64,000 nt of DNA, from contig JAUYBL010000007.1 of NCBI GenBank assembly GCA_030693065.1, positions 16,710 to 80,709 of the forward strand. The letters are read 5' to 3'. Both the position numbers and the translations under genes were made by a program. A model generated the notes under the pieces. That model ran no database searches. It had not been told where the DNA came from and saw nothing but the letters and a program-made list of their open reading frames with translations. Shown piece by piece: positions 1,620-60,816 of this stretch (position 1 is its first letter; every line of letters begins with the position of its first letter). This stretch comes from Methylococcaceae bacterium. GTDB taxonomy: Bacteria > Pseudomonadota > Gammaproteobacteria > Methylococcales > Methylomonadaceae.

Positions 1620-3392
1620 ATGGATATAGATCTCAAGATTCCAAACAAAGTAAAGCTGGTTCACGAGGCCTTGTTGCTTAGGCATACGGTTGAATTCCAA
1701 ATAGACCGGCCGGTACAAGCTTGGCAATGGATGAATCAAACACGCTCAGTACCTGATCAACAAGAATGGGTGCGACCTGAAGTAACAGATGCTTGGTTAC
1801 GATGCCTTGAAGATTATTGTTTGCCCTTGGGTAATTACGCCAATTGGGACAATTATCCCGTTATTGAGGCTGCGGTTGATCATCCCAAACCCGTCAACAA
1901 TATTGAAGAACTGATTAAACAGCTTAGCCACAACTTTCATGTTTTTTTGAAAGAAGCTGGGGTGATGATGGTGCTGACGACTCCGGAAGGCAGATTATTG
2001 TATGTCGCGGGCGAACAGCAGTTCCCAGGATCTTTTATGACTCGAATGCATGTTCAAGGCGCAAATTGGTGTGAGTCAATTCTCGGTAATAACGGCATAG
2101 GCAGTACCGCATTTCTGAAAAAACCGGTCGCATTTCAAGGTATGGAGCATTTTTTAAGTGTACTGCATCCTTTTACTACTGTCGGTTACCCATTACTTGA
2201 TGATGCCGGTGAGTTGATGGCGATTATTGGTTTAGTCAGTGATCATCAAGAAAGCATGAATTCGTTGTTTGCTTTTTTGCATTTGATTTGTGTCTTGGTC
2301 AATACTAATTTGCCGTTAGCGCAAAACACTGCCGCCCAAGAGCGGGTGTTGGAACAAATCCACTTTAATCCCGCCAAGAAAATACAACCTCAACTCAGTA
2401 ATTCTGCTATTTCTGTTGAATTAGACGCGCTCATCAACAAAGCCGTTAAGCTGCAGACGCATAAAATCCCCATTTTAATTACTGGCGAATCAGGTGTGGG
2501 TAAAGACCATTTTGTTGGCTTATTAAAAAATGCCGGCCCCAGAAAAGATGCGCCTTTGATTGCTATTAACTGCGCCTCCATACCTCATGATTTAATTGAA
2601 AGTGAGTTGTTTGGTTATGAATCCGGCAGTTTTACTGGCGCCCGAGCTAACGGTAAGCCAGGCAAATTCATGCTTGCTGACACAGGTATCTTGTTTCTTG
2701 ATGAAATCGGCGATATGAGTTTCGATTTACAATCAACGCTATTACGCGTGCTGGAAACCTCTGAATTTACGCCGGTAGGGGGAAGCAAACCGATTCTGGT
2801 TAATGTACAGGTAGTTGCTGCGACGAATGTGCAATTGCTGGAAGCAGTGGAAGCCGGCCGCTTTCGTCGCGATCTTTACTACCGTTTAAATGGCGCACAA
2901 ATTCATCTTTTACCTCTTCGCGAACGGCCGGATAAAAAAACAATTATTCAGCATATTCTGCAAAGGGAATTAAATGCTATTGCGCCTAATGGTGAGATTG
3001 AAATTTGTCCTGAAGTGCTGTGTTTAATCGCACAACATCCCTGGCCTGGTAACATTCGTCAATTGATTAATGTCATCAGGGCGACCCTTTATACCGCCAG
3101 CAGTCAGCTCATTACCGTTAAAGACCTGCCCGTTGATTTCGTCGCGGAACTCAAACAATTTGGCTCTCCCGATGCCCCGGCAATTAACTCAGCGCTGCAT
3201 CCCCCACTAATTGATAATTCGCCGGTAATGAGCTTAACAGCCTGGGAGTTGCATGGCATCAAAACCGCCTTAAAAGACTGCGAAGGCAATATTTCCATGG
3301 CAGCAAAGAAATTAGGTATAACCCGGACCACACTTTATAAAAAAATGGATCGTTTTGGTCTTAACAGGGAAGGTGATGGTTTATTTGCCTGA
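1620..3392 (+). CDS. Sigma-54-dependent transcriptional activator (bacterial enhancer-binding protein) with an N-terminal sensory (GAF-like) domain, an AAA+ core and a C-terminal HTH.
   Basis: Walker A GESGVGKD, the GAFTGA-type motif ESELFGYESGSFTGA, Walker B/arginine-finger region FLDEIGDM..RVLE, and a C-terminal Fis-type HTH (ISMAAKKLGITRTTLYKKM). Confidence 0.85.
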   Translation: MDIDLKIPNKVKLVHEALLLRHTVEFQIDRPVQAWQWMNQTRSVPDQQEWVRPEVTDAWLRCLEDYCLPLGNYANWDNYPVIEAAVDHPKPVNNIEELIKQLSHNFHVFLKEAGVMMVLTTPEGRLLYVAGEQQFPGSFMTRMHVQGANWCESILGNNGIGSTAFLKKPVAFQGMEHFLSVLHPFTTVGYPLLDDAGELMAIIGLVSDHQESMNSLFAFLHLICVLVNTNLPLAQNTAAQERVLEQIHFNPAKKIQPQLSNSAISVELDALINKAVKLQTHKIPILITGESGVGKDHFVGLLKNAGPRKDAPLIAINCASIPHDLIESELFGYESGSFTGARANGKPGKFMLADTGILFLDEIGDMSFDLQSTLLRVLETSEFTPVGGSKPILVNVQVVAATNVQLLEAVEAGRFRRDLYYRLNGAQIHLLPLRERPDKKTIIQHILQRELNAIAPNGEIEICPEVLCLIAQHPWPGNIRQLINVIRATLYTASSQLITVKDLPVDFVAELKQFGSPDAPAINSALHPPLIDNSPVMSLTAWELHGIKTALKDCEGNISMAAKKLGITRTTLYKKMDRFGLNREGDGLFA

Positions 3393-3505
3393 TGCGCTGC
3401 GACAACCTGTCGCGCGGCAATATGCCACATTTTGTTAGCGGAAGTAGCCTTGTAAAATAGCTGCAACTCTTAAATACACAGCCTCCTAAAGGATACAGAG
3501 TTTTT

Positions 3506-4165
3506 TCAACGACTAATTTTATTAGTCGTTTTTTTTTGCCCCAATTTTGGTGACTTTGCTTTTACTGAGCTTATTTGCTTTTGGTAAATATTAAAAGCTC
3601 TAACGGTGAGCAACATGGTCACTACAACCGCATAAATTAGCGGTTGCGTGTAATCCTTTTTGACCAACCAAAAGTAATGCACTAACGCCGTAATGGCTGC
3701 TGCATATACTGATCGATGTAATACCAACCAATATCGACCAAAACGTTTTTGCATCGATTTCGTTGATGTCAGCGCCAAAGGTAATAGCAATAAGTAGGTA
3801 ACTAACCCAGCCAATATATATGGGCTTTTTGGCACTTCATCGATGAATGCCGTCCAGGATAACGATAAGTCCAGTACTACGTAGACCAACAAATGCAAAC
3901 TGGCGTAGAAAAATGCAAACAGCCCCATCATCCGCCGAAAGCGAACAGGCCAAGATTGCCCGGTAATAATTTTTATCGGCGTTAATGCCAGACCGATACA
4001 TAAAAATCGCAGCGCCCAATCGCCAAAACCAAAATGCAGCGTTTCTATCGGATTTGCGCCTAATTGATCGTCAATGCCAGCAAAAAATAATTCGAAGAAA
4101 GGTAATAAGCTAAGCGTAAAAACCAGCAATTTAATAACTGCCCAATGTTGTTTGTTAAACAACAT
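3506..4165 (-). CDS. msrQ: Protein-methionine-sulfoxide reductase heme-binding membrane subunit MsrQ (YedZ-like).
   Basis: 219-aa polytopic membrane protein with conserved His residues, immediately downstream of and overlapping the MsrP gene. Confidence 0.75.
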   Translation of the reverse strand: MLFNKQHWAVIKLLVFTLSLLPFFELFFAGIDDQLGANPIETLHFGFGDWALRFLCIGLALTPIKIITGQSWPVRFRRMMGLFAFFYASLHLLVYVVLDLSLSWTAFIDEVPKSPYILAGLVTYLLLLPLALTSTKSMQKRFGRYWLVLHRSVYAAAITALVHYFWLVKKDYTQPLIYAVVVTMLLTVRAFNIYQKQISSVKAKSPKLGQKKTTNKISR

Positions 4166-5109
4166 TAAAAAAACTTAGCTAAATCCATATCGGAATAGAG
4201 ACTGGCGACTTGCTCGCCGTAACCGTTAAATTTTTCTGTCTCGCGCTTGGGGGCAAAAATACTCGAGCCCAACACGCGTTCTCGACTCTGGCTCCAGCGC
4301 GGATGCGGAACCTCCGGGTTGACGTTGGCATAAAAACCATATTCTCCGGGGCCACTCTTATTCCATGCGGTTGCCGGCATGGTTTCGGTGAATTCAATTT
4401 TGACGATTGCCTTAATGCTTTTGAAGCCGTATTTCCAAGGCACTATTAACCGCAATGGCGCGCCATTTTGATTTGGCAGTGTGTCGCCATACATGCCGGT
4501 GGCTAAAATGGCTAACGGATGCATGGCTTCATCCATACGCAAGCCTTCTACATAAGGCCATTCCAGCACATGAGCGCGCTGCCCAACCATGATGTCCGGG
4601 TTGTAAAGTGTGGTGAATTGAACGAATTTTGCTTTTGAGGTGGGTTTGAATTTTTTCAGCATTTCACCCAGCGGGAAACCGACCCATGGTACGACCATCG
4701 ACCAAGCCTCGACGCAGCGAAAGCGATAAATTCGCTCTTCTACCGGGTTGGCTTGCAAAATATCTTCTAGATGATATTTTCCTGGGTTTTCAGTTTCACC
4801 ACTCACTTCGACGGTCCAAGGGCTAGTAGTTAAGCCCCGAGCTAATAATGACGAATCTTGTTTGTTGGTGGAAAACTCATAGTAATTGGTATAACTGATT
4901 GCGTCTGCACGATCAGTGATGGCGGCCGTGGTTGAAAGCGTGCTACGGGTAATATTGGCATATTTACCAGCTTCAGCCCGACTCACCTCCGGTAATAATG
5001 CACTGGCTGAAAGCACGCTGGCGGCTTTAATAAATTGCCTCCGGGATTCAAATACTGCTTGATCGGTTATTTCGTGACTTGCGATTTCCGTTTTACTTTT
5101 GATTAACAT
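4165..5109 (-). CDS. msrP: Periplasmic molybdopterin-dependent methionine sulfoxide reductase catalytic subunit MsrP (YedY-like).
   Basis: Tat-type signal (SRRQFIKAASVLSASALL) followed by a sulfite-oxidase-family Moco-binding domain. Operonic with msrQ. Confidence 0.8.
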   Translation of the reverse strand: MLIKSKTEIASHEITDQAVFESRRQFIKAASVLSASALLPEVSRAEAGKYANITRSTLSTTAAITDRADAISYTNYYEFSTNKQDSSLLARGLTTSPWTVEVSGETENPGKYHLEDILQANPVEERIYRFRCVEAWSMVVPWVGFPLGEMLKKFKPTSKAKFVQFTTLYNPDIMVGQRAHVLEWPYVEGLRMDEAMHPLAILATGMYGDTLPNQNGAPLRLIVPWKYGFKSIKAIVKIEFTETMPATAWNKSGPGEYGFYANVNPEVPHPRWSQSRERVLGSSIFAPKRETEKFNGYGEQVASLYSDMDLAKFF

Positions 5110-5145
5110 GTCATCCTCTGCATTTGCAATCTTACTGTCAGCAAG

Positions 5146-5388
5146 TTATTCCACAGAGTGTTTCAGGGCGCAATATAAATCTTCAACTTCTTTTCTGGCC
5201 CAAGGTGTTTTTCTTAAGAATTTGAGGCTCGATTTAATGCTGGGCTCGTTGTTAAAACAACGAATATCAACAAGTCGGCCTAATTTTGGCCAGCCATAAA
5301 CGACAACAAGCTCGGTCACTACAGCTTCCAGCGTTACACCATGCAATGGATCTTTGGCTTGCTGATTTGTATCAGTCTTCCCGCTCAT
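5146..5388 (-). CDS. DUF2132-family small conserved protein.
   Basis: [18 protein letters not shown]....I.CF...[24 protein letters not shown] matches the DUF2132 signature. The start is placed at the internal Met (MSGKTD); the longer ORF (to 5454) would overlap the RIO kinase gene. Confidence 0.45.
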
Positions 5389-6214
5389 AGCGCCTCCGAA
5401 TGGCGTCATCTCTAGCATCGTTAATTTCGCGCATGATGCCGCGAAGATCGGCACGTTTAGTATTGTCTTTGAAATGGCCGGTTAATTTGACCTCAGGCGT
5501 CAACAGCCCACTTTGGTAAAGCTTCCAGATTTCTTTACCGTATTGGGTAGTTAATAACTCCGGGGCAAACTGTCCAAAATAGTCGGCCAGATTTTTGACA
5601 TCACGCTCCAACATATTTGCAGCATTATTGTTGGCTGCCGCATCCACCGCTTGGGGCAAATCGATGATCACCGGACCATGCTCATCAAGCAGAATGTTGT
5701 ATTCAGAAAGATCACCATGAACGATGCCCGCACAAAGCATTTTGACCACTTCTTTAATCAGAAGCCCATGGTATTCCAACGCTTGTTCTTTAGTTAAATC
5801 AAGGTCGTTAAGCCGTGGCGCGGCGTTACCATCCTGATCGGTGACCAGTTCCATCAGCAAGACGCCACCAACAAAATTGTACGGTTTGGGTACTCGCACG
5901 CCTGCAGCAGCAAGTCGATATAAGGCATCAACTTCAGCGTTTTGCCAGACTTCTTCTTGTTGCTTACGTCCAAAGCTAGTGCTTTTTTCCATAGCTCGCG
6001 CCTGGCGACTATTTCGTACTTTGCGTCCTTCTTGGTATAGCGCTTGTTTATGGAAGCCACGTTTATTGGCTTCTTTATAAACCTTCGCGCAGCGAATCTC
6101 GCCTTCGGAACGAACGACATACACAGCGGCTTCCTTACCACTTTTTAAGGGTCGGAGCACTTCATCAACCAAGCCATCGTGTACCAGTGGCTCGATACTT
6201 TTGGGTGTTTTCAT
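5372..6214 (-). CDS. RIO1-family atypical serine protein kinase.
   Basis: ATP-binding lysine context ([15 protein letters not shown]), catalytic loop [13 protein letters not shown] and metal-binding IIDLPQAVD are typical of RIO kinases. Confidence 0.75.
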
Positions 6215-7219
6215 GAACGCCTTTTATGTTGAATTTGTTGACACCAGGGCGACGACGAGCCTAGACCGCTAATAAAGCAGGTTCTTAAAAATAGCCGCTT
6301 GTGGACGATTCCCACTCCACTGCTATGGCTTTGTAAGTATAAATGACCATTTAAATTCAATTTGTGTAGCCTCATAGGGTTAATCGAACGTTAAAGTACT
6401 TGTCCGATTAAGCACATTTTATCCTATCGTCATTTAAAATTCGTGCTCGCTGATCAACATTCTGGTGAGGACGTGGTTTAGCGGAACAATTTAAAAATAA
6501 TCCACAGTTGGTGTTTCTGTCGCTAGAAGGTGTGTTGGTACTTGAATGATCGGCGCCCTTCCCTTGGTAACGCAACCATATGGAGAATCCGCGACCCGAG
6601 AGCACTTCGTCAAACTTGGCCCGGACGGAACGCTGGTAACAATACGAGGCGGGTCAATGACTCCACGACGAAGGATCGCCATTTTTCAAAGGATTCACCG
6701 CGTAATGCTGGCGTCTAATTCGAAGTTCATCCATTAGACATTTTCGGCTAAGGCGGGCTTACATTGCGGCCTTAGGGTTTGCAACTTGTCATCAATATTT
6801 TGGCAACCTTTAGATTTAACGTTATCACTAAGAGCCCTGCATCTTGCAAAGCGTCAAACCTAAGCTAAACGCCGTAGTCGCTTCTCAGAAAAATTCGGTT
6901 CGCCAATAAGTTAAGCCATTTAATTTAACTCATCTCGGTTTAAATCCGCCCTTCAGGCATTAGTGCCAATACTCCGTGTGAGCTAAAAATTTTTATTAGC
7001 GATTCTAAACTTATACTAGAAATGATCTAAAAATTAGCTTAGCATATGTAAAAATGTGATGCGCATCACATTATACATCTTTCCAAGTTAGTAATTTGTC
7101 TTGACAATGTGGTTTTTACCTTTTCTGTGTTAGCTATTTTTCGATCAAAAATTGAAAGCCGCAGACCCCGAAACCTGTCTAGTTCAAATCGTTATAAAAC
7201 ATTTAAACTCAATTTTTTG

Positions 7220-8317
7220 ATGAAAAAAATCCTTTGTGTAGTAGGTACGCGTCCGGAAGCCATTAAAATGGCGCCGGTGATTTTAGCGCTAAAAAAAGAA
7301 CCGTGGGCAAATGTAAGAGTACTGGCAACCGCCCAGCACCGCCACATGCTCGATCAGGTATTGAATTTCTTCAATATTACTCCTGACATCGACCTGAATA
7401 TCATGCGTCCCAATCAGGCACTCACCACTTTAACTGCTCGTTTATTGTTAGAAATGGACGACGTATTGTTGAGCGAAAAGCCTGATGTCGTGCTAGTGCA
7501 GGGTGATACCACCACAGTTATGTCCGTCGCACTGGCATGTTTTTATCATCGTATCGCTGTGGGTCATGTCGAGGCCGGCTTACGCACATGGGACATCAAT
7601 AACCCGTTTCCAGAAGAAGCCAATCGAGTCATTGCCGGGCGTTTGGCGCGTTGGCATTTTGCTCCTACCGAAAGCTCCAGACAAAATTTACTGCGCGAAG
7701 GTATTTCGGATCAAGACATATCCGTGACCGGCAATACCGTGATCGATGCATTGCTGATGACGGCTGCCAATGATTTGGAGTTACCTATTGAATTGGACCC
7801 AGCCAAACGTCTGGTATTAATTACCTCACATCGCCGTGAAAATTTTGGCGAGCCGTTCCGGAATATCTGCTTGGCTCTACGGACATTGTCCGAACGCAAT
7901 CCGGAGGTGCAGTTTTTGTACCCGGTTCATCCCAATCCCAACGTCAAAGATGTTGCCTATGAATTGTTGGCCGACAGACCGAATATTATTTTATGCGAAC
8001 CGCTGGATTACGCACCGTTTGTCGCTGCATTGAAACGCGCCTATCTGATTATTAGTGACTCAGGTGGCGTGCAGGAAGAAGCCCCAGCTTTGGGCAAGCC
8101 TGTGTTGGTACTGCGAGATGAAACCGAGCGTCCAGAAGCGGTAGACCAAGGCGTCGTTAAATTAGTTGGCGCCGATTATGATCGTATCGTTAGCGAAGCC
8201 CAGCGATTGTTAGATGACGAAAACGCATACCGGGCCATGGCTCAGGGGATCTCCCCCTACGGTGACGGTCATGGCGCGGAGAGAATAGCCAAAATACTTA
8301 GGGACTATTTTTCCTAA
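7220..8317 (+). CDS. wecB: UDP-N-acetylglucosamine 2-epimerase (non-hydrolysing, WecB/MnaA type).
   Basis: MKKILCVVGTRPEAIKMAPVI N-terminus, ..HVEAGLRT.., ..SDSGGVQEEAP.. Start taken at the internal ATG (7220) with canonical N-terminus; the ORF-track start (7109) adds a non-homologous leader. Confidence 0.85.
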   Translation: MKKILCVVGTRPEAIKMAPVILALKKEPWANVRVLATAQHRHMLDQVLNFFNITPDIDLNIMRPNQALTTLTARLLLEMDDVLLSEKPDVVLVQGDTTTVMSVALACFYHRIAVGHVEAGLRTWDINNPFPEEANRVIAGRLARWHFAPTESSRQNLLREGISDQDISVTGNTVIDALLMTAANDLELPIELDPAKRLVLITSHRRENFGEPFRNICLALRTLSERNPEVQFLYPVHPNPNVKDVAYELLADRPNIILCEPLDYAPFVAALKRAYLIISDSGGVQEEAPALGKPVLVLRDETERPEAVDQGVVKLVGADYDRIVSEAQRLLDDENAYRAMAQGISPYGDGHGAERIAKILRDYFS

Positions 8318-8416: not shown

Positions 8417-10015
8417 ATGTTGATTGCAGCCCTGAATACCATTTCCAATCACTCTTTAAATCTAAACAAAAATAAACATTTTTATATGTCTGCTTCGATA
8501 TACAAATTAGTAGCGTTGCCATTGTCAAAATTCCACAGATGGGCCTTTCTTGCGGTATTTTCCGCTGTTGCCTTATATACGCACTTTGGCAGTCGAAGCC
8601 TGGAGGCATTTAGCTCAGTCTTGCCGATTAATCTGCCAGCCATCGTTGGGGACTTGGCACTCGGCGAACGTATTTTTGGCATATTCGGATATTTCGCATC
8701 CATACTGCCGCATGCCTTACCGGAGCTTCAGTTCAGCGTCTCTTGGCTCGTCAATATTTTTATATCGCTATTTCTACTGATCCTGCTGCTGTTATTTTTC
8801 TATACCGTTCGTCATTATCATTTCACGCTGAATCGTTTATTCGGTCATCAGCGCCATCCTTATATCGATATCGATTCGGCTGACTGGCCGAAGATCACTA
8901 TTTTTATCGCGGCCCATAATGAGGAAGCGGTCATCGCAGGTTGTCTCGAAGCCTTACTGGAGGTGGATTATCCAGCCGATAAAATCCTGCTGATGCCTCT
9001 TAATGATCGCTCAACCGACCGGACACGAGAAATCATCGACGAATTTGTTAGTCAATATCCCGGCAGGATTCAGCCTTTTCACCGAACCAGCGGCAAACCC
9101 GGCAAGGCCGCAGCGCTTAAAGATGCCACCGAATTGGTCGACACTGACATTATTATCGTCTTTGACGCAGACTATGTGCCAGCCAAAGGGCTAATCAAGC
9201 ATCTCGTGGCGCCGTTTTTTGATCCTGAAGTCGGCGCTGTGATGGGACGCGTCGTGCCTCAAAACGTCAGCTCCAGCTTGCTCACCCGTTTGCTTGATTT
9301 AGAACGTTCCGCCGGTTATCAGGTGGACCAGCAGGCGCGGATGAATATGGGCTTAGTACCCCAGTACGGCGGAACAGTGGGTGGTATTCGTCTTCGAGCC
9401 TTAGAGAGTTCTGGCGGCTGGCATGACGATGTGTTGGCGGAAGACACCGACCTGACCATTCGATTTTTGCTCAACAATTGGAAAACAGTGTATCAAAACC
9501 GGGCCGAATGTTACGAGGAAGTGCCCGAAGAATGGCCGGCCAGGGTTAAGCAGATAAAACGCTGGGCAAAAGGACACAACCAAGCGTTATATCGGCATTT
9601 TCGCAAAATCTTGTTTATGTCCGGACTCAAGCCTCAAGAAAAACTTGATGCCATGGCGCTACTCGGCGTTTATGCCATGTCGCCTCTGCTGATTTTCGGC
9701 TGGGTAATTGGCATCGTGCTTTATTATTGCAATCTCAGCCCGATACCCGATTTAGCGCTGAGTTTGTTCGCAATGTCGGCGTTTAGCGTGTTGGGGAATT
9801 TTGCGGCTTTCTTTGAAATCGCCGCGGCGGTTTACTTGGATGGAAGCCAGCAGCGTATTCGGCTCTTGCCCTTCACCGTGATCGGTTTTTTGATCAGCAT
9901 GACGTCGATTTCCATGGCCACTCTGGAGATGATGGCCGATTCAGTCCGCTTGAATCCCCGCGAATTGAAATGGGATAAAACTCCACGTTACCGCAAAGTT
10001 GAGGTGGATGCCTAA
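8417..10015 (+). CDS. Integral-membrane processive family-2 glycosyltransferase (cellulose/chitin/PNAG-synthase-like beta-glycan synthase).
   Basis: N-terminal TM helices, a GT-A core with ITIFIAAHNEE, DxD (IVFDADY), AEDTDL and the processive-synthase Q-x-x-R-W motif (QIKRWAKG), and several C-terminal TM helices. The start is uncertain (8417 or the internal Met at 8486). Confidence 0.75.
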   Translation: MLIAALNTISNHSLNLNKNKHFYMSASIYKLVALPLSKFHRWAFLAVFSAVALYTHFGSRSLEAFSSVLPINLPAIVGDLALGERIFGIFGYFASILPHALPELQFSVSWLVNIFISLFLLILLLLFFYTVRHYHFTLNRLFGHQRHPYIDIDSADWPKITIFIAAHNEEAVIAGCLEALLEVDYPADKILLMPLNDRSTDRTREIIDEFVSQYPGRIQPFHRTSGKPGKAAALKDATELVDTDIIIVFDADYVPAKGLIKHLVAPFFDPEVGAVMGRVVPQNVSSSLLTRLLDLERSAGYQVDQQARMNMGLVPQYGGTVGGIRLRALESSGGWHDDVLAEDTDLTIRFLLNNWKTVYQNRAECYEEVPEEWPARVKQIKRWAKGHNQALYRHFRKILFMSGLKPQEKLDAMALLGVYAMSPLLIFGWVIGIVLYYCNLSPIPDLALSLFAMSAFSVLGNFAAFFEIAAAVYLDGSQQRIRLLPFTVIGFLISMTSISMATLEMMADSVRLNPRELKWDKTPRYRKVEVDA

Positions 10016-37047: not shown

Positions 37048-38535
37048 ATGGACTATTCTATAGAAAGCGCCCCCTTAGAAAAACTGCAATCTGATTGCAT
37101 CATTGTCGGCGTCTACCAAGATCAACAACTTAGTACATCTGCAACCACCCTTAACAGCAGCAGCCAAGGGTTGATAGCTACAATCGTCAGCCGCGGCGAC
37201 ATCAGCGGAAAAAACGGTGAAACATTGTTAATCAACGCCGTGTCCGGCATCGCTAGCGACCGGATATTGCTGGTCGGCCTGGGTGAAAATAAACCTTTAT
37301 CCGGCAAAGATTACAAAAAAGCCCTGCAAGCAGCGGCCAACAGCTTGAAAAAACCTTACATTAAATCCGTGGTCTCGGCATTATCAGAAACCCCGGTTGA
37401 TAATCGCGACTGGGCATGGAAAGCCCGGCAAGTGGTTGAAGCATTCCATGATGCCGCCTACCAATTTACAGCCTGTAAATCCGATAAAACCACCGAAAGT
37501 AAGCTCGAAAAACTCAGCATCGCCGCCCCGGAAACGCAAGCCGCTGCGGCGCAAACGGGTTTAGCCCAAGGCCGCGCCATCGCGGAAGGCGTCGCGTTAA
37601 CCAAACTGCTTGCTGACTTGCCTGGCAACATCTGCACACCGTCTTATATTGCTGAACAAGCACTCGAATTAGGCAAAAAACATAGCAGCTTAGCGGTGAG
37701 CATTCTGGAAGAAGCCGAAATGGCAGTGCTGGGCATGGGCGCATTGTTGTCCGTGTCACGCGGCAGTCGCCAACCTGCCAAATTAATCACCATCAACTAC
37801 CAAGGCGGTGCTCCTGACAGCAAACCGATTGTGCTTATTGGCAAAGGTTTAACGTTCGATGCGGGCGGTATCTCGTTAAAACCTGCGCCCGGTATGGATG
37901 AAATGAAGTACGACATGTGCGGCGGTGCATCGGTACTGGGCACCCTGCAGGCGGCGGCACAATTGCAATTACCATTGAATATCATCGGATTGGTTCCTTC
38001 TTCAGAAAACCTGCCTGATGGCGATGCCAACAAACCGGGCGACATTCTCACCAGCATGTCCGGTCAAACCATTGAAGTACTCAATACCGATGCCGAAGGC
38101 CGCTTATTGTTGTGCGACACGCTAACTTATGCCGAACGCTTCAATCCTGAAGTCGTCATCGACTTGGCGACATTGACCGGCGCTTGCCTGGTCGCCTTAG
38201 GCCGTGTACCGAGCGGCTTATTGGGTAATGATGATGCCCTGTGCGATGACTTAATTGCCGCTGGCGATGTCGCCAATGACACACTCTGGCGCCTGCCGCT
38301 CTGGGAAGAATACCAAGAGCAACTCAAATCCAATTTTGCCGACATCGCCAATGTCGGCGGCAAAGATGCGGGTACCATTACCGCCGCCTGCTTCCTGGCA
38401 CGTTTTGCCGAAAAATTCCGTTGGGCGCACCTGGATATTGCCGGTACTGCTTGGCGTACTGGCCAAAACAAAGGCGCAACCGGTCGTCCGGTACCGTTGC
38501 TGGTGCAATACCTGCTTAATCGAGCACAAGGCTAA
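37048..38535 (+). CDS. pepA: Leucyl aminopeptidase (M17 family).
   Basis: The M17 catalytic signature region ..[35 protein letters not shown]... Confidence 0.85.
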
Positions 38536-38544
38536 AATCGATTC

Positions 38545-38988
38545 ATGCCGGAGGCCACTTTTTACGTTTTGCAGTCAGATTCCCAACGGGAACGTTTTGC
38601 CTTCGCTTGCCGACTGATTGAAAAAGCCTACCGTAGCGGTCAGTTCGGCTATGTACTCACCGATTCCGATGCACAAAGCCAGCTCATTGACGACCTGCTC
38701 TGGACCTTCAGGGCAGGTAGTTTTATACCGCATCAACAGGTCACCGGCGAGCTGCCTGCATTGAAAAATATCTTTCTGATCGGCTCGACGCCCACGCCGC
38801 AAGCTTGGCAAAAACTCGTCATCAACTTATCCAATCAATCCCCGCAAAACTTTCAGCAGGCCACGCGCATCCTGGAAATACTCGATAACAGCGAAGCCAC
38901 CAAAGAACCCGGCAGACAACGTTGGATTCAATACAAACAGGCAGGATTTGATGTGACCAAGCATGAATTTGATAAAGCTGTTGATTAA
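38545..38988 (+). CDS. holC: DNA polymerase III chi subunit.
   Basis: 147 aa, N-terminus ATFYVLQSD....FACRLIEKAY, conserved position after pepA. Confidence 0.75.
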   Translation: MPEATFYVLQSDSQRERFAFACRLIEKAYRSGQFGYVLTDSDAQSQLIDDLLWTFRAGSFIPHQQVTGELPALKNIFLIGSTPTPQAWQKLVINLSNQSPQNFQQATRILEILDNSEATKEPGRQRWIQYKQAGFDVTKHEFDKAVD

Positions 38989-39239
38989 GCCCTTCGACGG
39001 AGCTCAGGATGACCGGTCATTTGTTGATTTCGTTTGTGGTCGACTGCACGGATGCAGGAGGTAGGACACCAACAGTAGGCGCTTTAGGCGACGCAGGAGC
39101 AGTTGCCGAGAGCCTGTCGAACCAAACGTAATAAATTAATTTATAAGGTACCGTTCGCACTGAGCTTGTCGAAGTGCAGAATGATATTCGAAAATGCCAA
39201 AGTACCAGATTCCTTACATGCAAGAACCCAAGGACCACG

Positions 39240-41984
39240 ATGCAACTCCAGCTTGAAGACCTGCTTTACCAACAAAAAGCCATACAAAGCGCTGTTGATG
39301 TCTTCAAAGGTCAAAGCAAAAACTTGCCAAACCGGCCCTTGCTGTCGCCAATCAATACCACAGACATCACCTCAAACCAGTGTCTATTAAGCCTGGAGCA
39401 GATACATAAAAACAAACTCGCTATCCTGCAACAAAACGCCTTGCCGGAACATGACGCCGCGTTAAGCGATGAGCCGCAAATCTGCATCGAAATGGAAACC
39501 GGCACCGGTAAAACGCTGGTGTATATCCGCACCATTTACCAACTCTACAAAGAATACGGCTACACCAAATTCATCATTCTGGTGCCGTCGATTGCAGTCA
39601 AAGAAGGCATTATCAATACACTGGAAAGCTTTGCAGACCAGCTAAAAGCCCAATATCAACAAAACATTCACTGGTTTGAATACGACAGTAAACGTCTGAA
39701 CCAACTTAAGCATTTTGTTACCGACGATCAGCCGCAAATCATGCTGACCACTGTTCAAGCCTTTACTGCGGAAGATCGCATCCTTAACCAAACCGGTCGG
39801 GATGACAGCATTGGCGGATTTACTTACCTGGAAGCCTTAGGCCAAACACGCCCCATCATTATCATGGACGAGCCGCAAGAAGGCATGGATACCGACTTGG
39901 CGCAAAAACGCCTGAGCACCTTAACGCCTTTGTTTGTGTTTCGGTACTCGGCCACCCATAAGCGCATCATCAACCGGCTATATCGTTTAACGCCTTACGA
40001 CGCTTACGCAGAAGGCTTGGTGAAAAAGATTGAAGTGCTTTCGGTAGCCGAAATCAACGACGAAGCTACCTTAAAAATTGAGCTACAGGAGATTCAAACC
40101 CAAGCCGGACAAGACCCCAAAGCCAAGCTAAATCTTTGGCACAATCTCAAAACCGGCTTTGCGCTTAAAGCCAGTAAATGGCTGAAGGCCGGTGACAATC
40201 TGGGTGCAGTCACCAACAACATCAGCTATCAAGACTTTACCGTCGAGCGCGTCTACAAAGGTCTTCGAGACAAGCACTGGAAAATCCATTTCAGCAACGG
40301 CGTGGAAATAGAACAACACCAACGGCAAGGCGACATTGGCGGCATCTTCCGTCAGCAGCTGTATTGGTTAATCAGCAGCCATTTTGATAAACAACAAAAG
40401 CTCAGGCCCCGCGGCATCAAATGCCTGTCGCTTATTTTTATCGACAAAGTCGATAATTACCTCGGTGCCGAACCACTGATAAAACAACTGTTTGTCGAAG
40501 AATATCAACGCGTTCACCAAGAACGCACCAACAAACCGGCCAACCCGGCACAAATTATCGCCGTGCAAGGCTACTACTTTGCCCGCACCGGCAAAGGCGA
40601 CTTTACCGACAACGAAAGCGCCATGCTCAAAAACCGGGAAATTTACGACCTTATCCTTAAAGACAAGCAGCAACTGTTGTCGCTGGATAACCCCGTTGAA
40701 TTTATCTTTTCGCATTCCGCGCTGGGCGTCGGCTGGGATAACCCCAACATTTTCAACATCGCCACCCTTAACCAAACCTACAGCGAAATCAAAAAACGCC
40801 AGGAAATAGGCCGCGGCCTGCGCATCTGTGTCAATCAACAAGGTCGGCGCATTTATGACCCGGCCAGCGACGATGCCGATGATGAAATCAACGTGTTAAC
40901 GCTTATTCCCAATGAAACTTACGAAACCTTCGCCTTGCAATATCAGGCGCAATTGTCGGAAGAATTCGGTAAAGACGGCAAACAGCCGCCACTGCGCAAA
41001 AACAGCAAAGGCAACAAAAAGCCAAACACACTCACCCGCAATGATGCGCGCTTTAACAGCGACAGCTTTCGTGAGTTTTGGCAGGCATTGGCCAGAAAAA
41101 CCCAATACACCGTAAGTTTTGATGAAGCGGAAATTATCCGTTGCGGCATTCAAGAACTGAACAAAATAAACATCCCCAGCTACGAAGCCGAAATACGCCT
41201 AACCCGCATCAAAGCCCTGCAAAACATCCAGGGCCAAGGCGAGGAAATAGGCCGGGAAATCGCCCAGCTTAAAGCCAGTTACTCGGCGGCGGATATTGTC
41301 GAACAAATCAGCGAGAACACCTCACTCAGCTACCGCGTGGTGTTTAACATCATAAAAGCCCTGGATAACAAAGCCCAAATACTGCGCAATCCGCCGTTGT
41401 TCATCCAGCAATCCAGCACAGCACTTAAACGCATTGAACTGGCCGAAATGCTGCGCACTCTCAGTTACCATGAAACCGGCGACAGCTTTTCTCTGGAGTT
41501 GTTTAAAGAAGCGATTCATACCTATGCACCGGTTGAGCCCACGCCCAACAAAGGCATTTACGACTTTGCCATCTGCGATGCCGATTCTCAGCCGGAGCAT
41601 AACTTTGCCCGCCAAGCCGACAACGACCCAAAAGTTGTGTGTTTATTAAAACTGCCCGATTTCTACCAAATCCCCACGCCCATCGGTGAATACTACCGCC
41701 CGGATTTTGGCCTAGTCGTCAAACAAAGCAGCCTTAAAAACTCTGACAGCAGCGAACTGTATTTTGTTATCGAAACCAAAAGCACCAATGACATCAACGA
41801 CGACAAAGCCCTCACCGAACACGAACGCAACAAAATCCAATGCGCCGTTAAACATTTTCAGGCCTTGGGCATCCGTGCCGAAATTGGTGGCGAGGTAACT
41901 TACCAAGTTAAAGAAGATCCGGGCAGCTACCAGCAAGCCAGCTTTCAGGCGCCGGTTAAAGACTATGGAGATGTAAAGATATAA
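39240..41984 (+). CDS. Type III restriction-modification endonuclease subunit (Res)-like SF2 helicase with a C-terminal PD-(D/E)xK nuclease domain.
   Basis: Helicase motif I (METGTGKTLVYIRT), a motif II region (IIIMDEPQEG), later helicase motifs, and a C-terminal YYRPDFGLVV..ELYFVIETKS (PD..ExK). Start taken at MQLQLEDLL (39240) rather than the ORF-track 39174. Confidence 0.65.
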   Translation: MQLQLEDLLYQQKAIQSAVDVFKGQSKNLPNRPLLSPINTTDITSNQCLLSLEQIHKNKLAILQQNALPEHDAALSDEPQICIEMETGTGKTLVYIRTIYQLYKEYGYTKFIILVPSIAVKEGIINTLESFADQLKAQYQQNIHWFEYDSKRLNQLKHFVTDDQPQIMLTTVQAFTAEDRILNQTGRDDSIGGFTYLEALGQTRPIIIMDEPQEGMDTDLAQKRLSTLTPLFVFRYSATHKRIINRLYRLTPYDAYAEGLVKKIEVLSVAEINDEATLKIELQEIQTQAGQDPKAKLNLWHNLKTGFALKASKWLKAGDNLGAVTNNISYQDFTVERVYKGLRDKHWKIHFSNGVEIEQHQRQGDIGGIFRQQLYWLISSHFDKQQKLRPRGIKCLSLIFIDKVDNYLGAEPLIKQLFVEEYQRVHQERTNKPANPAQIIAVQGYYFARTGKGDFTDNESAMLKNREIYDLILKDKQQLLSLDNPVEFIFSHSALGVGWDNPNIFNIATLNQTYSEIKKRQEIGRGLRICVNQQGRRIYDPASDDADDEINVLTLIPNETYETFALQYQAQLSEEFGKDGKQPPLRKNSKGNKKPNTLTRNDARFNSDSFREFWQALARKTQYTVSFDEAEIIRCGIQELNKINIPSYEAEIRLTRIKALQNIQGQGEEIGREIAQLKASYSAADIVEQISENTSLSYRVVFNIIKALDNKAQILRNPPLFIQQSSTALKRIELAEMLRTLSYHETGDSFSLELFKEAIHTYAPVEPTPNKGIYDFAICDADSQPEHNFARQADNDPKVVCLLKLPDFYQIPTPIGEYYRPDFGLVVKQSSLKNSDSSELYFVIETKSTNDINDDKALTEHERNKIQCAVKHFQALGIRAEIGGEVTYQVKEDPGSYQQASFQAPVKDYGDVKI

Positions 41985-41998
41985 ATAGTGCCAACGAT

Positions 41999-42130
41999 AC
42001 GTGACGCAGAGCGTCACCTGCGGCATTCCCATTTATGCCCTTTAGGGTACGCAGAGCGTGGGAACGATAACAACCATCGCTCCCATGCTCTGCGTGGGAG
42101 TGTAGCCCGAGACGCTCTGCGTCTCGCACC
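41999..42130. repeat. Cluster of four REP-like GC-rich palindromes sharing an ACGCAGAGCGT / ACGCTCTGCGT core.
   Basis: GTGACGCAGAGCGTCAC; GGGTACGCAGAGCGTGGGAACG; CTCCCATGCTCTGCGTGGGAG; CGAGACGCTCTGCGTCTCG. They lie in the 165-nt gap between res and the mod remnant. Confidence 0.55.
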
Positions 42131-42149
42131 GCTGGACCGTAGAGCGAAT

Positions 42150-42494
42150 ATGAAAGAAAATAAAATGCCCAACACCCCCGATGTCCAGCAAGAACGCTTG
42201 CAGGAATTAAAACGCCTGTTTCCCGACCTGTTCGACGGCGAAGGCCAGCTTAAACTCGACGACCTTAAACAACTGGCGGGCGAGCCCAGCCAACACAAAG
42301 AACGTTACGACTTTACTTGGTCAGGCAAACGCAACGCCAAACAGGCCGCTTACAGTCCGACCACCGCCGCGCTGACTTACGATGAAACCCGCTCAGTCAA
42401 TCCCGACAAGGCAGGCGGCAACCTGATTATCGAAGGCGAAAATCTGGAAAGCCTTAAATGCCGACGCCAAATGGAATCTGCGCCAGCATCTTAA
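42150..42494 (+). pseudogene. 5' remnant (114 codons) of a type III mod (adenine-specific DNA methyltransferase) gene.
   Basis: MKENKMPNTP..LQELKRLFPDLFDGEGQLKLDDLKQLAGE....ERYDFTWSGKRNAKQAAYSPTTAALTYDETRSVNPDKAGGNLIIEGENLESLK matches the conserved N-terminus of type III Mod proteins. It stops just before the catalytic and target-recognition domains should begin. Confidence 0.55.
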
Positions 42495-42593
42495 GTATTT
42501 GTTTATTGCGTTTTAGGTATTCCCAAAGATTGACGTGGAAGCGATACAATGCAATTACGTGTTAACAAATTGAATACACAAGGGGATCACAAA

Positions 42594-42809
42594 ATGAACA
42601 CCGCAGAAAAAGTTTATCAAGATCTACAAGCTTTTCCAGAACCGTTAGCACAAGAGGTTTTGCAGTTCGTGGAGTTTTTAAAGTTTAAACAGCTTAATTC
42701 AGAAAAAACGCCCAACGACACCACAGTAGCAGCAATGCATGCAGCCGAGCGGGGCGAATATGAGGCAACCAGCTTGAATGATTTAAAAAAGCAGTGGGAT
42801 GATGCGTGA
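42594..42809 (+). CDS. Type II antitoxin (DUF2281-type N-terminus, DinJ/RelB-like C-terminus).
   Basis: RBS AAGGGGA. The N-terminal motif VYQDLQAFPEPLAQEVLQFVEFLKFK is a DUF2281 hallmark. Its stop overlaps the toxin start (ATGA). Confidence 0.55.
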   Translation: MNTAEKVYQDLQAFPEPLAQEVLQFVEFLKFKQLNSEKTPNDTTVAAMHAAERGEYEATSLNDLKKQWDDA

Positions 42810-43075
42810 GAGAAATTGTCCAAACCTCGCAATTTAAACAGGACTTAAAGAAGATAAAACATTCAGCCCGTTATAAAGTCGACGATTTGTTAGCGGTTGT
42901 TGAATCGTTAGCTTGTGATAAACCACTTGCTGAAAAACATCGAGCACATGATTTATCTGGTAATTGGCAATCACACAAAGAATGTCATATAAAACCTGAC
43001 TGGCTGCTCATTTATCGCTTACTTGACGATACCTTGGTGTTAGTTAGGACAGGTACGCACAGTGAATTATTCTAA
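42806..43075 (+). CDS. yafQ: YafQ-family (RelE-superfamily) mRNA interferase toxin.
   Basis: 89 aa; ..FKQDLKKI.....LLAVVESLA...[14 protein letters not shown]....[28 protein letters not shown] is collinear with E. coli YafQ, including the catalytic His residues. Confidence 0.7.
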
Positions 43076-43103
43076 GAATTTTATAAAAACAGACCTTTCA
43101 ACC

Positions 43104-45923
43104 ATGGAAAAAACATACTCCCCGCACGACATTGAACAACGCTGGTATCAAACCTGGGAACAGCAAGGCTATTTTGCTGATCAACCCGAAAAAACCGATG
43201 CAGAATCTTACTGCATTATGATTCCGCCGCCGAATGTCACCGGCAGTCTGCATATGGGCCATGCCTTTCAAGACACCATCATGGATGCCTTGACTCGCTA
43301 TCATCGCATGAAAGGCTATCGCACCTTATGGCAGCCCGGCACCGATCATGCCGGTATCGCAACGCAAATGGTGGTTGAACGCCTGTGTAATGCCGAGGGT
43401 CTTACCCGCCACGATTACGGCCGGGATAAGTTCATTGAAAAAGTCTGGCAATGGAAGGAAGAGTCCGGCGGCACCATTACCAGGCAATTGCGGCGTATGG
43501 GCTCGTCTCTGGATTGGAGTCGCGAGCGTTTTACCATGGACGAAGGCATGTCCGAGGCGGTGCAGGAGGTGTTTATTCGCCTGTACGAAGAAGGCCTGAT
43601 TTACCGCGGCAAACGTCTAGTTAACTGGGATCCGGTACTGCACACCGCGGTGTCCGATCTGGAAGTGTTATCCGAAGAAGAAAGCGGCTTCATGTGGCAT
43701 ATCCGTTATCCGTTAAGCAACGGCACCGGCCATTTGATCGTGGCGACCACCCGTCCGGAAACGCTGCTTGGCGATGCCGCCGTAGCGATTCATCCGAATG
43801 ATGACCGCTACAAACATTTATTAGGCGAATATGTTGAGCTGCCGTTAACCGGCCGTCGCATCCCGATTATTGCGGATGAATATGTCGACCCTGAATTCGG
43901 TACCGGCTGCGTAAAAATTACCCCGGCCCATGATTTTAACGATTACGAAGTATGGACGAGACACCGCAACCATTCAGCTATTCAAGCATTGCCCAATGGC
44001 GGCTTGATCAATATTTTTACCATTGATGCGCAAATTAGAAACAACAAGGATGATGATAGCCAACTGATTCCGCATCAATATTTTGGCCTGGATCGCTTTG
44101 AAGCCCGCAAACAGATTGTGGCTGATTTGGAAGCGCAAGGCTTGCTGGAAAAAGTCGCCGACCATAAATTGATGGTGCCGCGCGGCGATCGCAGTCAAAG
44201 CGTTATCGAGCCGCTGTTAACCGACCAATGGTACGTCAAAGTTGCGCCATTGGCGGAACCGGCCATCGCCGCGGTTGAAAATGGCGACATTAAGTTTGTG
44301 CCCGACAACTGGAAAAATACCTATTTTGATTGGATGCGTAATATTCAGGACTGGTGTATTTCCCGGCAAATCTGGTGGGGCCATCGCATTCCGGCCTGGT
44401 ATGACGACAAGGGCAATATTTACGTGGGGCGTTCCGAACAAGCTATTCGCGATCGTCATCACTTGCCCGCCGATTACCCGATTCGTCAGGATGAAGACGT
44501 ATTGGATACGTGGTTTTCGTCAGCGTTATGGCCGTTTTCAACATTGGGTTGGCCGGAAAATACCGAAGAATTAGCCAAGCATTATCCGACCAGCGTGCTG
44601 GTCACAGGCTTTGACATCATTTTCTTCTGGGTGGCGCGGATGATTATGATGGGCTTGAAGTTTCAAGGCCAAGTGCCGTTCAAGGAAGTCTATATTCACG
44701 GCTTGGTTCGTGATGCCGAAGGCCAGAAAATGTCCAAATCCAAAGGCAATGTATTGGATCCTATCGACATTATTGATGGCATCGAACTGGAAGCTTTGGT
44801 TGCCAAGCGTGTCTCTGGAATGATGCAGCCGCATCTAGCCAAAAAAATCGAACAATCTACACGCAAACAATTTCCTGACGGCATCGCCTCGTTCGGTACC
44901 GATGCGCTGCGTTTTACTTTTGCTTCGTTGGCGTCGACGGGCCGGGATATTCGCTTTGACCTAGCGCGTACCGAAGGTTATCGCAATTTCTGTAACAAGC
45001 TATGGAATGCGGCGCGTTATGTGCTGATGAACACCGAAGAGCAAGATAATGGTTTATCAGATGGTCCCATTGCATACACGCAAGTCGATCGTTGGATTAC
45101 CGCCCGTTTACATCAAGTGACTGCGGTGACCAGCAATGCCATCGACAACTACCGCTTTGATTTGGCGGCGCAGTCAATCTATGAATTTACCTGGAACGAG
45201 TACTGCGACTGGTACTTGGAATTAGCCAAAATATCACTTCAATCGGATGATCTGGCTTTGCAACGCGGCACTCGCAAAACTTTGCTGAATGTTCTGGAAA
45301 CCTTGCTGCGCTTGGCACATCCGATCATGCCGTATATAACCGAAGAAATTTGGCAACGGGTTGCGCCTCTCGCCGGTATCACCGAAAAAACCATTATGTT
45401 GCAGCCTTATCCGGTCGCAGACGATGCATTGATTGATCTCAATGCGATTACTCAAGCCAACTGGATCATGACCTTTATTTTGGGCGTGCGTCGTATTCGT
45501 GGCGAGATGAATATTGCTCCGGGTAAACCGTTACCAGTATTGCTGCAAAATGGCTCTGATGCGGATCAAAAAAATCTATCCCAAAGCCTGAGTTATTTAC
45601 AAAAACTGGGCCGATTAGAGTCAATCACCTGGCTAAATCCAGATGACACTACACCGGAATCAGCAATTGCCTTGGTTGGTGAGTTGAAAATTTTGATACC
45701 TATGGCTGGGTTAATCGATAAAGAAGCCGAGTTAGCAAGGCTGGCAAAAGAAATCCAAAAAATTGCTAACGATTTGCCAAGAGTCGAGGGTAAGTTGAAT
45801 AATCCCGCTTTTGTTGATAAAGCGCCACCGGAAGTAATTGATAAGGAACGCGCCAAATTGGCAGAAATGCGCTCTTTGCTAAACAATCTTGAGCAACAAC
45901 AAGAGAAAATCCGCTCATTGTAG
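43104..45923 (+). CDS. valS: Valine--tRNA ligase.
   Basis: HIGH-class motifs ([15 protein letters not shown]), KMSKS and a C-terminal coiled-coil. Start taken at MEKTYSP. Confidence 0.9.
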
Positions 45924-59659: not shown

Positions 59660-59745
59660 GTTCCTCGTTCAACTTCTCGTTCCCATGCGCCGCGTACCCT
59701 CTGGGGCATAAATGGGAATGCTTAACAGGCGCGCTGCGCCCCGAG
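59660..59745. repeat. REP element (degenerate GTTCCCA..GCG..TGGGAA palindrome plus GGCGCGCTGCGCC palindrome) on the 5' side of the RAYT gene.
   Basis: Palindromes read directly; related copies at 60297..60343 and 60768..60816. Confidence 0.55.
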
Positions 59746-59754
59746 TACTAAACA

Positions 59755-60291
59755 ATGGGTCGCAGCCGCTACCGAATTTACGACGGACAAGCCCCACATT
59801 TTTTAACCTGCACCGTGTTGAACTGGATACCGCTGTTTACTCGCCCACAAACCGCTGGCATCATTCTGGATGCGCTACGACACAGGCAAGAAGAACTAGG
59901 CTGGAAAATATACGGCTACGTCATCCTGGAAAATCACCTGCATTTAATTGTACAAGCAGAAAACCTGGCTTTGGAATTGCCGCGCTTTAAATCCTACACG
60001 GCTCGCCAACTGATCGACCATCTGAAAGAATGCGGCGCCGAGCGATTACTGCAACAACTGGCGTTTTTCCGCAAGGATCACAAACGTGATCGAGATTATC
60101 AATGCTGGGAAGAAGGATCGCACCCGCAGCTTATTGAAAATGAACAGGTGCTTCAGCAGAAACTCGAGTATATCCACCAAAACCCGGTAAAACGGGGTTA
60201 TGTAGATGATCCTACGCATTGGAGATATTCCAGCGCTAGGGATTACTCCGGGCAAACTGGGTTGATTTCCGTTTATAAGAGTTGGTTGTGA
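59755..60291 (+). mobile_element. REP-associated tyrosine transposase (RAYT; IS200/IS605-like Y1 HuH transposase).
   Basis: 178 aa with the HuH motif (ENHLHLIV) and a catalytic Tyr block (LEYIHQNPVKRGY). Flanked on both sides by REP palindromes. Confidence 0.75.
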
Positions 60292-60296
60292 TTCTT

Positions 60297-60343
60297 GGCG
60301 CAGCGCGCCTTAAATGCATTCCCACGCCGCGCGTGGGAACGAG
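60297..60343. repeat. REP element (GGCGCAGCGCGCC plus TTCCCACGCCGCGCGTGGGAA) on the 3' side of the RAYT gene.
   Basis: Perfect palindromes read directly. Confidence 0.6.
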
Positions 60344-60388: not shown

Positions 60389-60742
60389 ATGAAATCAGCA
60401 ATCACAATCGCGGCAGCACTTATCCTGACAGCCTGTTCCAACTCATCAGGCGTCGTTAAAATAGGTCCAGACACTTTTACGATATCAACATCTGCATCCC
60501 CGGGGAAAGGAGGTGTTCCCGCAGCAAAACGAATTGCTTACCAAGAAGCAGCAGAAGAATGCTCGCACCGTGGTGATTTAGAGGTCTTCACCCTAAGCGA
60601 AAAGACTTCCTCCCCGACATGGACGGAAGGTATGGCCAGTATGGAACTGAACTTTCGCTGTCTGCGCTTTAACGATCCTGAATTCCAACGTCAACGGTTG
60701 CAGAGTTCGCCTGACCAAATTATTGAGAATCGTCAGCGATGA
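60389..60742 (+). CDS. Small lipoprotein of unknown function.
   Basis: Lipobox (AALILTAC), 117 aa, sandwiched between two REP elements. Confidence 0.45.
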   Translation: MKSAITIAAALILTACSNSSGVVKIGPDTFTISTSASPGKGGVPAAKRIAYQEAAEECSHRGDLEVFTLSEKTSSPTWTEGMASMELNFRCLRFNDPEFQRQRLQSSPDQIIENRQR

Positions 60743-60767: not shown

Positions 60768-60816
60768 TCCTCGTTCCCACGCGCTGCGTGGGAATGCAGT
60801 CAAGGCGCGCTGCGCC
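60768..60816. repeat. REP element (GTTCCCACGCGCTGCGTGGGAATG plus GGCGCGCTGCGCC).
   Basis: Perfect palindromes read directly, immediately upstream of the thioesterase relic. Confidence 0.6.

Follow-up and report, generated by a model that had tools for sequence, protein, structure and literature searches.

In a 64,000-nt stretch of a Methylococcaceae bacterium genome (contig JAUYBL010000007.1; hereafter the window) we analysed a type III restriction-modification (R-M) locus lying between holC and valS, in which the restriction gene, res, is intact and about 80% of the methyltransferase gene, mod, is missing. Gene order across the region runs lptG/lptF, pepA (37048-38535), holC, res, a spacer, the mod stub, a toxin-antitoxin (TA) pair, valS and pilB, with lptG/lptF on the minus strand and every gene from pepA onward on the plus strand (Table 1). 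The pieces listed in the original prediction, namely a long res, four palindromes, a truncated mod and a TA pair next to valS, were all recovered in place among the open reading frames (ORFs) and profile matches of the window. Relatives for comparison were drawn from species-representative genomes scanned with HolC and from metagenome contigs; these sequences are labelled L001-L015, and homologues of the Res protein P0001 and so forth.

Table 1. Features of the holC-valS interval and the REP-associated transposase gene of the window.
Feature	Position	Strand	Description
holC (DNA polymerase III chi)	38545..38988	+	Pfam DNA_pol3_chi 9e-36; left housekeeping flank of the insertion site
res	39240..41984	+	type III restriction subunit, 914 aa; superfamily 2 (SF2) helicase and C-terminal PD-ExK nuclease
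Repetitive extragenic palindrome (REP) hairpin cluster, res-mod spacer	41991..42135		GTGACGCAGAGCGTCAC; ACGCAGAGCGTGGGAACGAT/ATCGCTCCCATGCTCTGCGT; GAGACGCTCTGCGTCTC
mod 5' stub, native	42150..42460	+	first 104 codons, stopping short of the DPPY motif
Deletion junction	42460/42461	+	1,493 nt absent relative to L001 11259-12751 (blastn and global alignment)
Imperfect direct repeats at the deletion break points			left CTGGAAAGCCTTAAATGCC; right CTGGAACGCG(C/T)(C/G)TTAAACACC; from the alignment and other mod alleles
mod 3' remnant	42461..42516	+	final 56 nt of mod with its original stop codon, no longer in frame; aligns with L001 12752-12807
DUF2281 antitoxin	42594..42809	+	71 aa from ATG 42594 (86 aa from ATG 42549); Pfam DUF2281 4e-07, above cut-off
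YafQ/RelE-family toxin	42806..43075	+	89 aa, GTG start; 4-nt overlap with the antitoxin stop
valS	43104..45923	+	right housekeeping flank; L001 counterpart called with tRNA-synt_1 and Anticodon_1
REP-associated tyrosine transposase (RAYT)	59755..60291	+	NCBIfam NF047646, 99.3 bits against a cut-off of 80

Intact res and deleted mod

The res product matches Pfam ResIII (7e-17) and RE_endonuc (1.2e-24, residues 793-912 of the 936-aa ORF), as well as PADLOC REase_III (PDLC03647; 6e-179) and the Res subunit of EcoP15I (PDB 4zcf_C; 1.3e-42), which bears out both its identification as a type III Res by homology and the description of the locus as type III R-M with a full-length res. The ORF is intact as originally described; its quoted length of 936 aa, however, is that of the maximal ORF from GTG 39174. 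Since the N-terminus reads MQLQLE, or nearly so, in all 26 homologues read, translation likely begins at ATG 39240, which has AAGGA upstream, to give a protein of 914 aa. Helicase motifs ETGTGKT (I), MDEPQ (II), YSATH (III) and QEIGRGLR (VI) align with those of EcoP15I and are kept in the 26 homologues, and the nuclease segment RPDFG...VIETK aligns with SPDFA...IIETK of EcoP15I. All helicase and nuclease motifs are thus kept, and the gene carries no lesion. Because its score against the NCBIfam type III endonuclease equivalog NF012027 (239 bits) falls under the 564-bit cut-off, the protein belongs to a distant subfamily, distinct from EcoP15I. More than 7,900 Res homologues were found, the top 120 almost all measuring 890-932 aa; the best-scoring ones carry DEPQ and an adjoining N6_N4_Mtase gene, in a family called 'type III restriction enzyme' by JGI. 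The closest, P0001 (95% identical), is encoded on the 105-kb metagenome contig L001.

Motif II (MDEPQEGMD, residue 209 of the 914-aa protein) does read DEPQ, which had been taken as a possible sign of further decay. MDEPQEGMDT is, however, invariant in 26/26 retrieved homologues (53-95% identity), and the DEPQ-bearing P0001, P0003, P0004, P0045, P0018 and P0113 sit in loci with a full-length Mod. EcoP15I itself has DEPH, not DEAH, at this position, as does the relative L013. These comparisons indicate that DEPQ is the normal motif II of this Res subfamily and not a product of decay.

That mod is truncated was correctly predicted; the ORF of 114 codons assigned to it (42150-42494) comprises 104 native codons followed by 10 that are out of frame, with a stop ending at 42494. 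The stub matches PADLOC MTase_III (PDLC03634) at 1.5e-24 over profile positions 3-108 of 621, and its native part, which ends ...IIEGENLESLKC just before IYIDPPYN, is matched by residues 1-104 of the L001 Mod at 99% identity (tblastn). In L001 the order is holC-res (914 aa)-mod (619 aa, N6_N4_Mtase)-DUF2281-YafQ-valS, and the Mod encoded there, which matches EcoP15I Mod (4zcf_A) at 1.5e-68 and 6k0w at 7e-83, is by these matches a genuine type III Mod. A complete type III system has an adjoining cognate Mod with DPPY, a target recognition domain (TRD) and FxGxG; L001 has such a Mod and the window has none.

Comparison with relatives carrying intact mod and res, which the original prediction had proposed, reveals in L001 an intact system and in the window an internal deletion of mod. 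The window aligns cleanly with L001 on both sides of one single gap. The deleted segment holds mod codons ~105-601, and with them DPPY, the entire TRD and DFFAGSGTT, the FxGxG motif for S-adenosylmethionine; since 1,493 is not a multiple of 3, the deletion also shifts the frame. Beyond the junction, the 3' remnant matches L001 Mod residues 596-619 (tblastn) and is followed by the normal mod-TA spacer. The two break points are alike (CTGGAA..GCCTTAAA..CC), and their likeness is greater in other mod alleles than in L001: at the right break point L001 has CTGGAACGCGTGTTAAACACC and the L005 allele CTGGAACGCGCCTTAAACACC, the latter having GCCTTAAA in common with the left break point; the L014 allele differs at one further base. 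Given this resemblance, replication slippage or microhomology-mediated joining is the most likely origin of the deletion.

Toxin-antitoxin pair, REP hairpins and flanking sequence

The toxin matches Pfam YafQ_toxin (1e-32; 112.7 bits, cut-off 30), TIGR02385 RelE_StbE (100.5 bits, cut-off 27.9) and YafQ-family toxins of the PDB (3e-16 to 1e-12). As its score against the narrow YafQ model TIGR00053 (76.7 bits) misses the 87.25-bit cut-off, RelE/YafQ superfamily would be the safer label. A small antitoxin gene lies directly upstream in the same operon layout, its product not being DinJ, and by profile the pair is a putative type II YafQ/RelE module. It ends where it was said to end, the valS ATG lying exactly 28 nt past the toxin stop, and positions 43076-43103 are all that separates the two genes. 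Because this gap is so short and no promoter-like site was found in it, transcription of the essential valS gene may start in the TA operon or run through it. A promoter and terminator scan gave no signal above shuffled expectation, and an Rfam search of 38500-43300 returned no match.

The four palindromes between res and mod had been read as REPs, a label that is well supported because the same hairpin family flanks the RAYT gene at 59755-60291 as well as RAYT genes in L013 and L014. Their core, ACGCAGAGCGT, occurs four times in the spacer, against 0.8 matches expected by chance over the whole window, and the 165-nt spacer folds into nested hairpins at -87.5 kcal/mol (z = -9.1). A strict REP consensus (TCCCACGCTNNAGCGTGGGA) gave no match with up to 3 mismatches, and looser patterns and blastn-short were needed. 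Hairpins of the types TCCCAYGC-N3-GCGTGGGA and GRCGC-N3-GCGYC recur between ORFs at 59677-59745 and 60296-60340, on either side of the RAYT gene, and as a further pair at 60768-60812. That gene, identified through NCBIfam and without a match in a Pfam search, belongs to the REP family and not to the R-M locus. It is 55% identical to the RAYTs of L013 and L014, each of which lies between mod and valS with flanking hairpins 80-87% identical to window 42000-42126. Between the two inverted REP pairs at 60296-60340 and 60768-60812 we also observed a 117-aa ORF (60389-60742) with a lipoprotein-like N-terminus.

REP invasion had further been counted as part of the decay of the locus. The res-mod spacer of L001 is also filled with REPs (203 nt; its hairpin count differs from that of the window), and the system is intact there; REPs are on this ground not a sign of decay. 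No REPs were found in the res-mod region of the more distant L005 and L007.

Two further observations concern the left end of the interval. A 40-codon ORF between holC and res (39009-39131) has gene calls in L001 and L002 too and is without a family match in the L001 gene table; we found no evidence that it is a real gene. Within it, positions 39019-39040 (CATTTGTTGATTTCGTTTGTGG, 30 nt after the holC stop) resemble the last mod codons at 42497-42518 (CATTTGTTTATTGCGTTTTAGG) at 18/22 positions. By rough estimate ~0.3 such 22-nt matches would be expected by chance in the region, and the likeness could be a relic of an island boundary or chance.

The same site in relatives

Identity between the window and L001 changes sharply along the region. 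Values of 99.2-99.7% for lptF/G, pepA, holC and the holC-res spacer give way to 91.7% in res, 94.2% in the mod stub and 4 mismatches in the first 36 nt past the junction, and are followed by 99.4% across the TA block (42497-43132), ~92% in valS from 43133 to ~45000 and 100% in pilB; taken together, lptF/G, pepA, holC, the TA genes and pilB are 99.3-100% identical. At the same time, window 39207-42462, from res to the mod stub, is 92.3% identical to L013, which is another species, with flanks 87-88% identical to those of the window, and is thus as close to it as the window res is to the L001 res. Differences in res between lineages are mostly synonymous. Because identity shifts so sharply, and because the L013 segment is as close as that of L001, the R-M unit and part of valS must have been swapped between lineages by homologous recombination. 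The 5' two-thirds of valS (43133-~45000), ~8% diverged from L001 with a TA module and pilB on either side that are 99.4-100% identical, is a second recombination tract, in an essential gene next to the island. We also considered whether the mod deletion is itself a recombination boundary with the TA cassette and rejected this, as both sides of the junction lie in the divergent R-M allele and the boundary is at least 36 nt further right. A chimeric assembly of L001 is unlikely, because its first 12,400 nt recur in L002, reaching to within ~400 nt of where mod ends, and its res, together with the beginning of the spacer towards mod, recurs in L003 and L004.

In L015, a Methylococcaceae metagenome-assembled genome, the site is empty, with holC followed by valS 82 nt away (9424-9505), which marks the res-mod-TA segment as an insertion relative to a conserved pepA-holC-valS order. 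Occupied sites differ in their contents. A complete R-M system is accompanied by the YafQ-type TA pair in L001, by DUF2281 and a PemK toxin in L005 (5825-6399), and by DUF2281 and a 17-codon PemK remnant (MISEGQIVLFRFLQADQ, then a stop) in L007 (13417-13680). The slot before valS in L005 and L007 thus holds a different TA module, with a PemK/MazF toxin and a DUF2281 antitoxin that is 32-33% identical to that of the window and conserved in its N-terminal half. In L014 (Methylococcaceae bacterium C3_concoct.bin.71), mod is intact (665 aa), res (6922-8016) is internally deleted and a RAYT occupies the TA slot; the deletion, of ~1.7 kb, brings codon ~15 up against codon ~583 in a different frame, corresponding to a join of window 39286 to 41012. 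The mod of L014 has a different recognition domain, and its type of decay is the reciprocal of that in the window, where res is intact and mod deleted. In L013 (Methylobacter sp. STB_140; 2078-7652), res has TAA at codon 55, where the window has ATA, mod is frameshifted near its 3' end and a RAYT again occupies the TA slot; its mod is split by a frameshift or deletion into ORFs 4943-6589 and 6625-6876, in an 8x-coverage assembly in which errors are possible. Since the lesions of L014 and L013 are independent, R-M decay is recurrent at the holC-valS site. Breaks inside mod were also seen in L010 (8085-8381) and L002 (12401-12525), where each diverges from otherwise identical twins within 300 nt of a contig end; in L010 the sequence departs immediately beyond DPPYNT and continues into an unrelated gene on the opposite strand. 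Either break may represent another disruption of mod or a chimeric assembly, and so near contig ends we set both aside as unreliable evidence of truncation.

The res gene precedes mod in 6/6 independent contexts (L001, L005, L007, L009, L011 and L012), with a 4-nt overlap in L009 and L012. Judged from these contexts, res-mod order is a property of the subfamily and not a peculiarity of the window locus, and it implies that deletion of mod would be without polar effect on res. Aligned with one another, four intact Mod alleles show 80-100% identity over the N-terminal 200 and the final ~200 columns, and 12-58% in the central recognition domain. Conserved ends and a variable centre are the usual pattern of type III mod specificity alleles.

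On the window branch, 14 res substitutions are non-synonymous and 48 synonymous when polarised with L005 and L007 as outgroups; on the L001 branch, the corresponding counts are 19 and 45. Relaxed selection on an orphan res was set aside in the absence of a non-synonymous excess, in what is a weak test with little power to date the deletion. With res free of lesions and of excess amino-acid changes, the mod deletion is probably recent.

Interpretation and known systems

Taken jointly, we consider it highly probable that the interval is a chromosomal island between holC and valS of a Methylobacter-like methanotroph, made up of a type III R-M unit (res then mod) and a separate TA module, in which a single 1,493-nt deletion has since left a mod stub and a 3' remnant. 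Comparison shows that the deletion came after res, the REP hairpins of the spacer and the TA module were established at the site, and that it has left res and the TA genes undamaged. One deletion between short imperfect direct repeats would then have taken mod codons ~105-601 and shifted the frame, leaving behind the 104-codon stub, the 10-codon out-of-frame tail and 56 nt of the old 3' end. In EcoP1 and EcoP15, Mod recognises the site, positions Res on DNA and protects Res from proteolysis (PMC3874151). Because Mod supplies recognition and stabilises Res, and Mod is gone, the locus is very probably inactive, as had been predicted on the same ground, and would neither methylate nor restrict. 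Res should be harmless without Mod, in which case the loss of mod would cost the cell nothing; for the same reason, as the different lesions at this site show, either type III gene can go first. This is an ordinary, well-documented kind of R-M decay. Several points weigh against the explanation. The inactivity of the locus is carried over from EcoP1/EcoP15 biochemistry; a second compatible Mod may lie elsewhere in the genome, the search for Mod having covered 64 kb; and the exact microhomology used is a reconstruction, the L001 allele being ~6-8% diverged from the parental mod allele. Finally, a junction 25-mer searched in the metagenome contigs gave no match, so that the deletion allele is seen only in the window.

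This last result would also be expected if the organism really had an intact mod and the deletion were either an artefact of sequencing or assembly or a variant carried by a minority of a mixed population; odd joins inside mod are also seen in related assemblies, at contig ends of L002 and L010. We nevertheless judge an artefact very unlikely, given that the break-point repeats are imperfect and short (no more than 8 nt perfect), too short for assembler collapse, that the junction lies mid-way in 64 kb of contiguous sequence, and that its flanks align cleanly base by base. Less credible still is the originally proposed event, in which insertion of a DUF2281/YafQ cassette replaced the 3' portion of mod, leaving an addiction module in the remnant of a defence island. 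The TA pair does stand directly after the mod stub, and the slot before valS is exchangeable in relatives, where it holds a YafQ TA pair, a PemK TA pair, an antitoxin with a toxin remnant, or a RAYT. However, L001 carries TA genes 99.1-99.6% identical to those of the window (99% for the antitoxin) downstream of its complete 619-aa mod, the window keeps 56 nt of the mod 3' end together with the spacer that leads to the TA pair, and the junction lies within mod sequence on both sides. The comparison with L001 thus refutes replacement of mod by the TA module, and we give it hardly any weight.

It is likewise improbable, if somewhat less so, that the orphan Res still works, either with a Mod from another part of the genome or with the 104-aa stub, and keeps a role in defence or DNA processing. 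In its favour, res has no lesion, every catalytic motif is kept and the substitution ratio of 14:48 is low; moreover, the N- and C-terminal parts of Mod are 80-100% conserved across alleles, so that a paralogous Mod could in principle bind. The low ratio, however, mostly reflects time before the deletion, no other Mod-like sequence was found within the 64-kb window by tblastn with the L001 Mod, the stub is without any catalytic or DNA-recognition element, and res is disrupted at the same site in relatives, which gives no sign of selection keeping it there. We think there is only a slim chance that Res, alone or with the 104-residue stub, has been retained as functional, whether through a paralogous Mod elsewhere or as a modification-independent helicase-nuclease; were this true, the locus would be a working 'Res-only' form derived from a type III system, and not a pseudogene-in-waiting.

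Under the preferred explanation, an internal mod deletion within an older island, res is properly annotated as an orphan and mod as a disrupted pseudogene of a type III R-M system, beside an independent RelE/YafQ-type TA module; labels such as an active defence system or TA-driven replacement are to be avoided. Beyond annotation its significance is small. The series of states at this one site (empty, intact, mod-deleted, res-deleted and both damaged, with varied recognition domains and varied occupants before valS) illustrates R-M turnover in a free-living methanotroph lineage.

Each component has a known counterpart. Similar to the REP/RAYT (REPIN) systems of gammaproteobacteria (PMC2817692, PMC3116915), the window has short, GC-rich, imperfect intergenic palindromes, single and in inverted pairs, flanking one RAYT gene, with three REP-bearing places visible within the 64 kb of this genome that the window spans. 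Like YafQ-DinJ and RelE modules, the TA pair has a toxin that keeps the C-terminal GTHSELF and HIKPDW segments and an upstream antitoxin gene overlapping it by 4 nt; unlike YafQ-DinJ, its antitoxin is of the DUF2281 type rather than DinJ. For the R-M genes, the best profile matches are to the PADLOC subfamily of REase_III PDLC03647 and MTase_III PDLC03634, from which Res shows no difference and of which the window lacks most of mod. Type III enzymes are characterised by ATP-dependent cleavage that needs two inversely oriented sites and by hemi-methylation of the recognition site. As in EcoP15I and EcoP1I (Mod2Res1; PDB 4ZCF), the window Res combines an N-terminal SF2 helicase (motifs I, II, III and VI) with a C-terminal PD...ExK nuclease, the intact Mod of L001 is a DPPY...TRD...FxGxG methyltransferase, and the same dependence of Res on Mod is to be expected. 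The window locus differs from these systems in its motif II (DEPQ rather than DEPH), in the deletion of Mod, and in its res-mod order, mod preceding res in EcoP1 with a 2-bp gap (PMC3874151).

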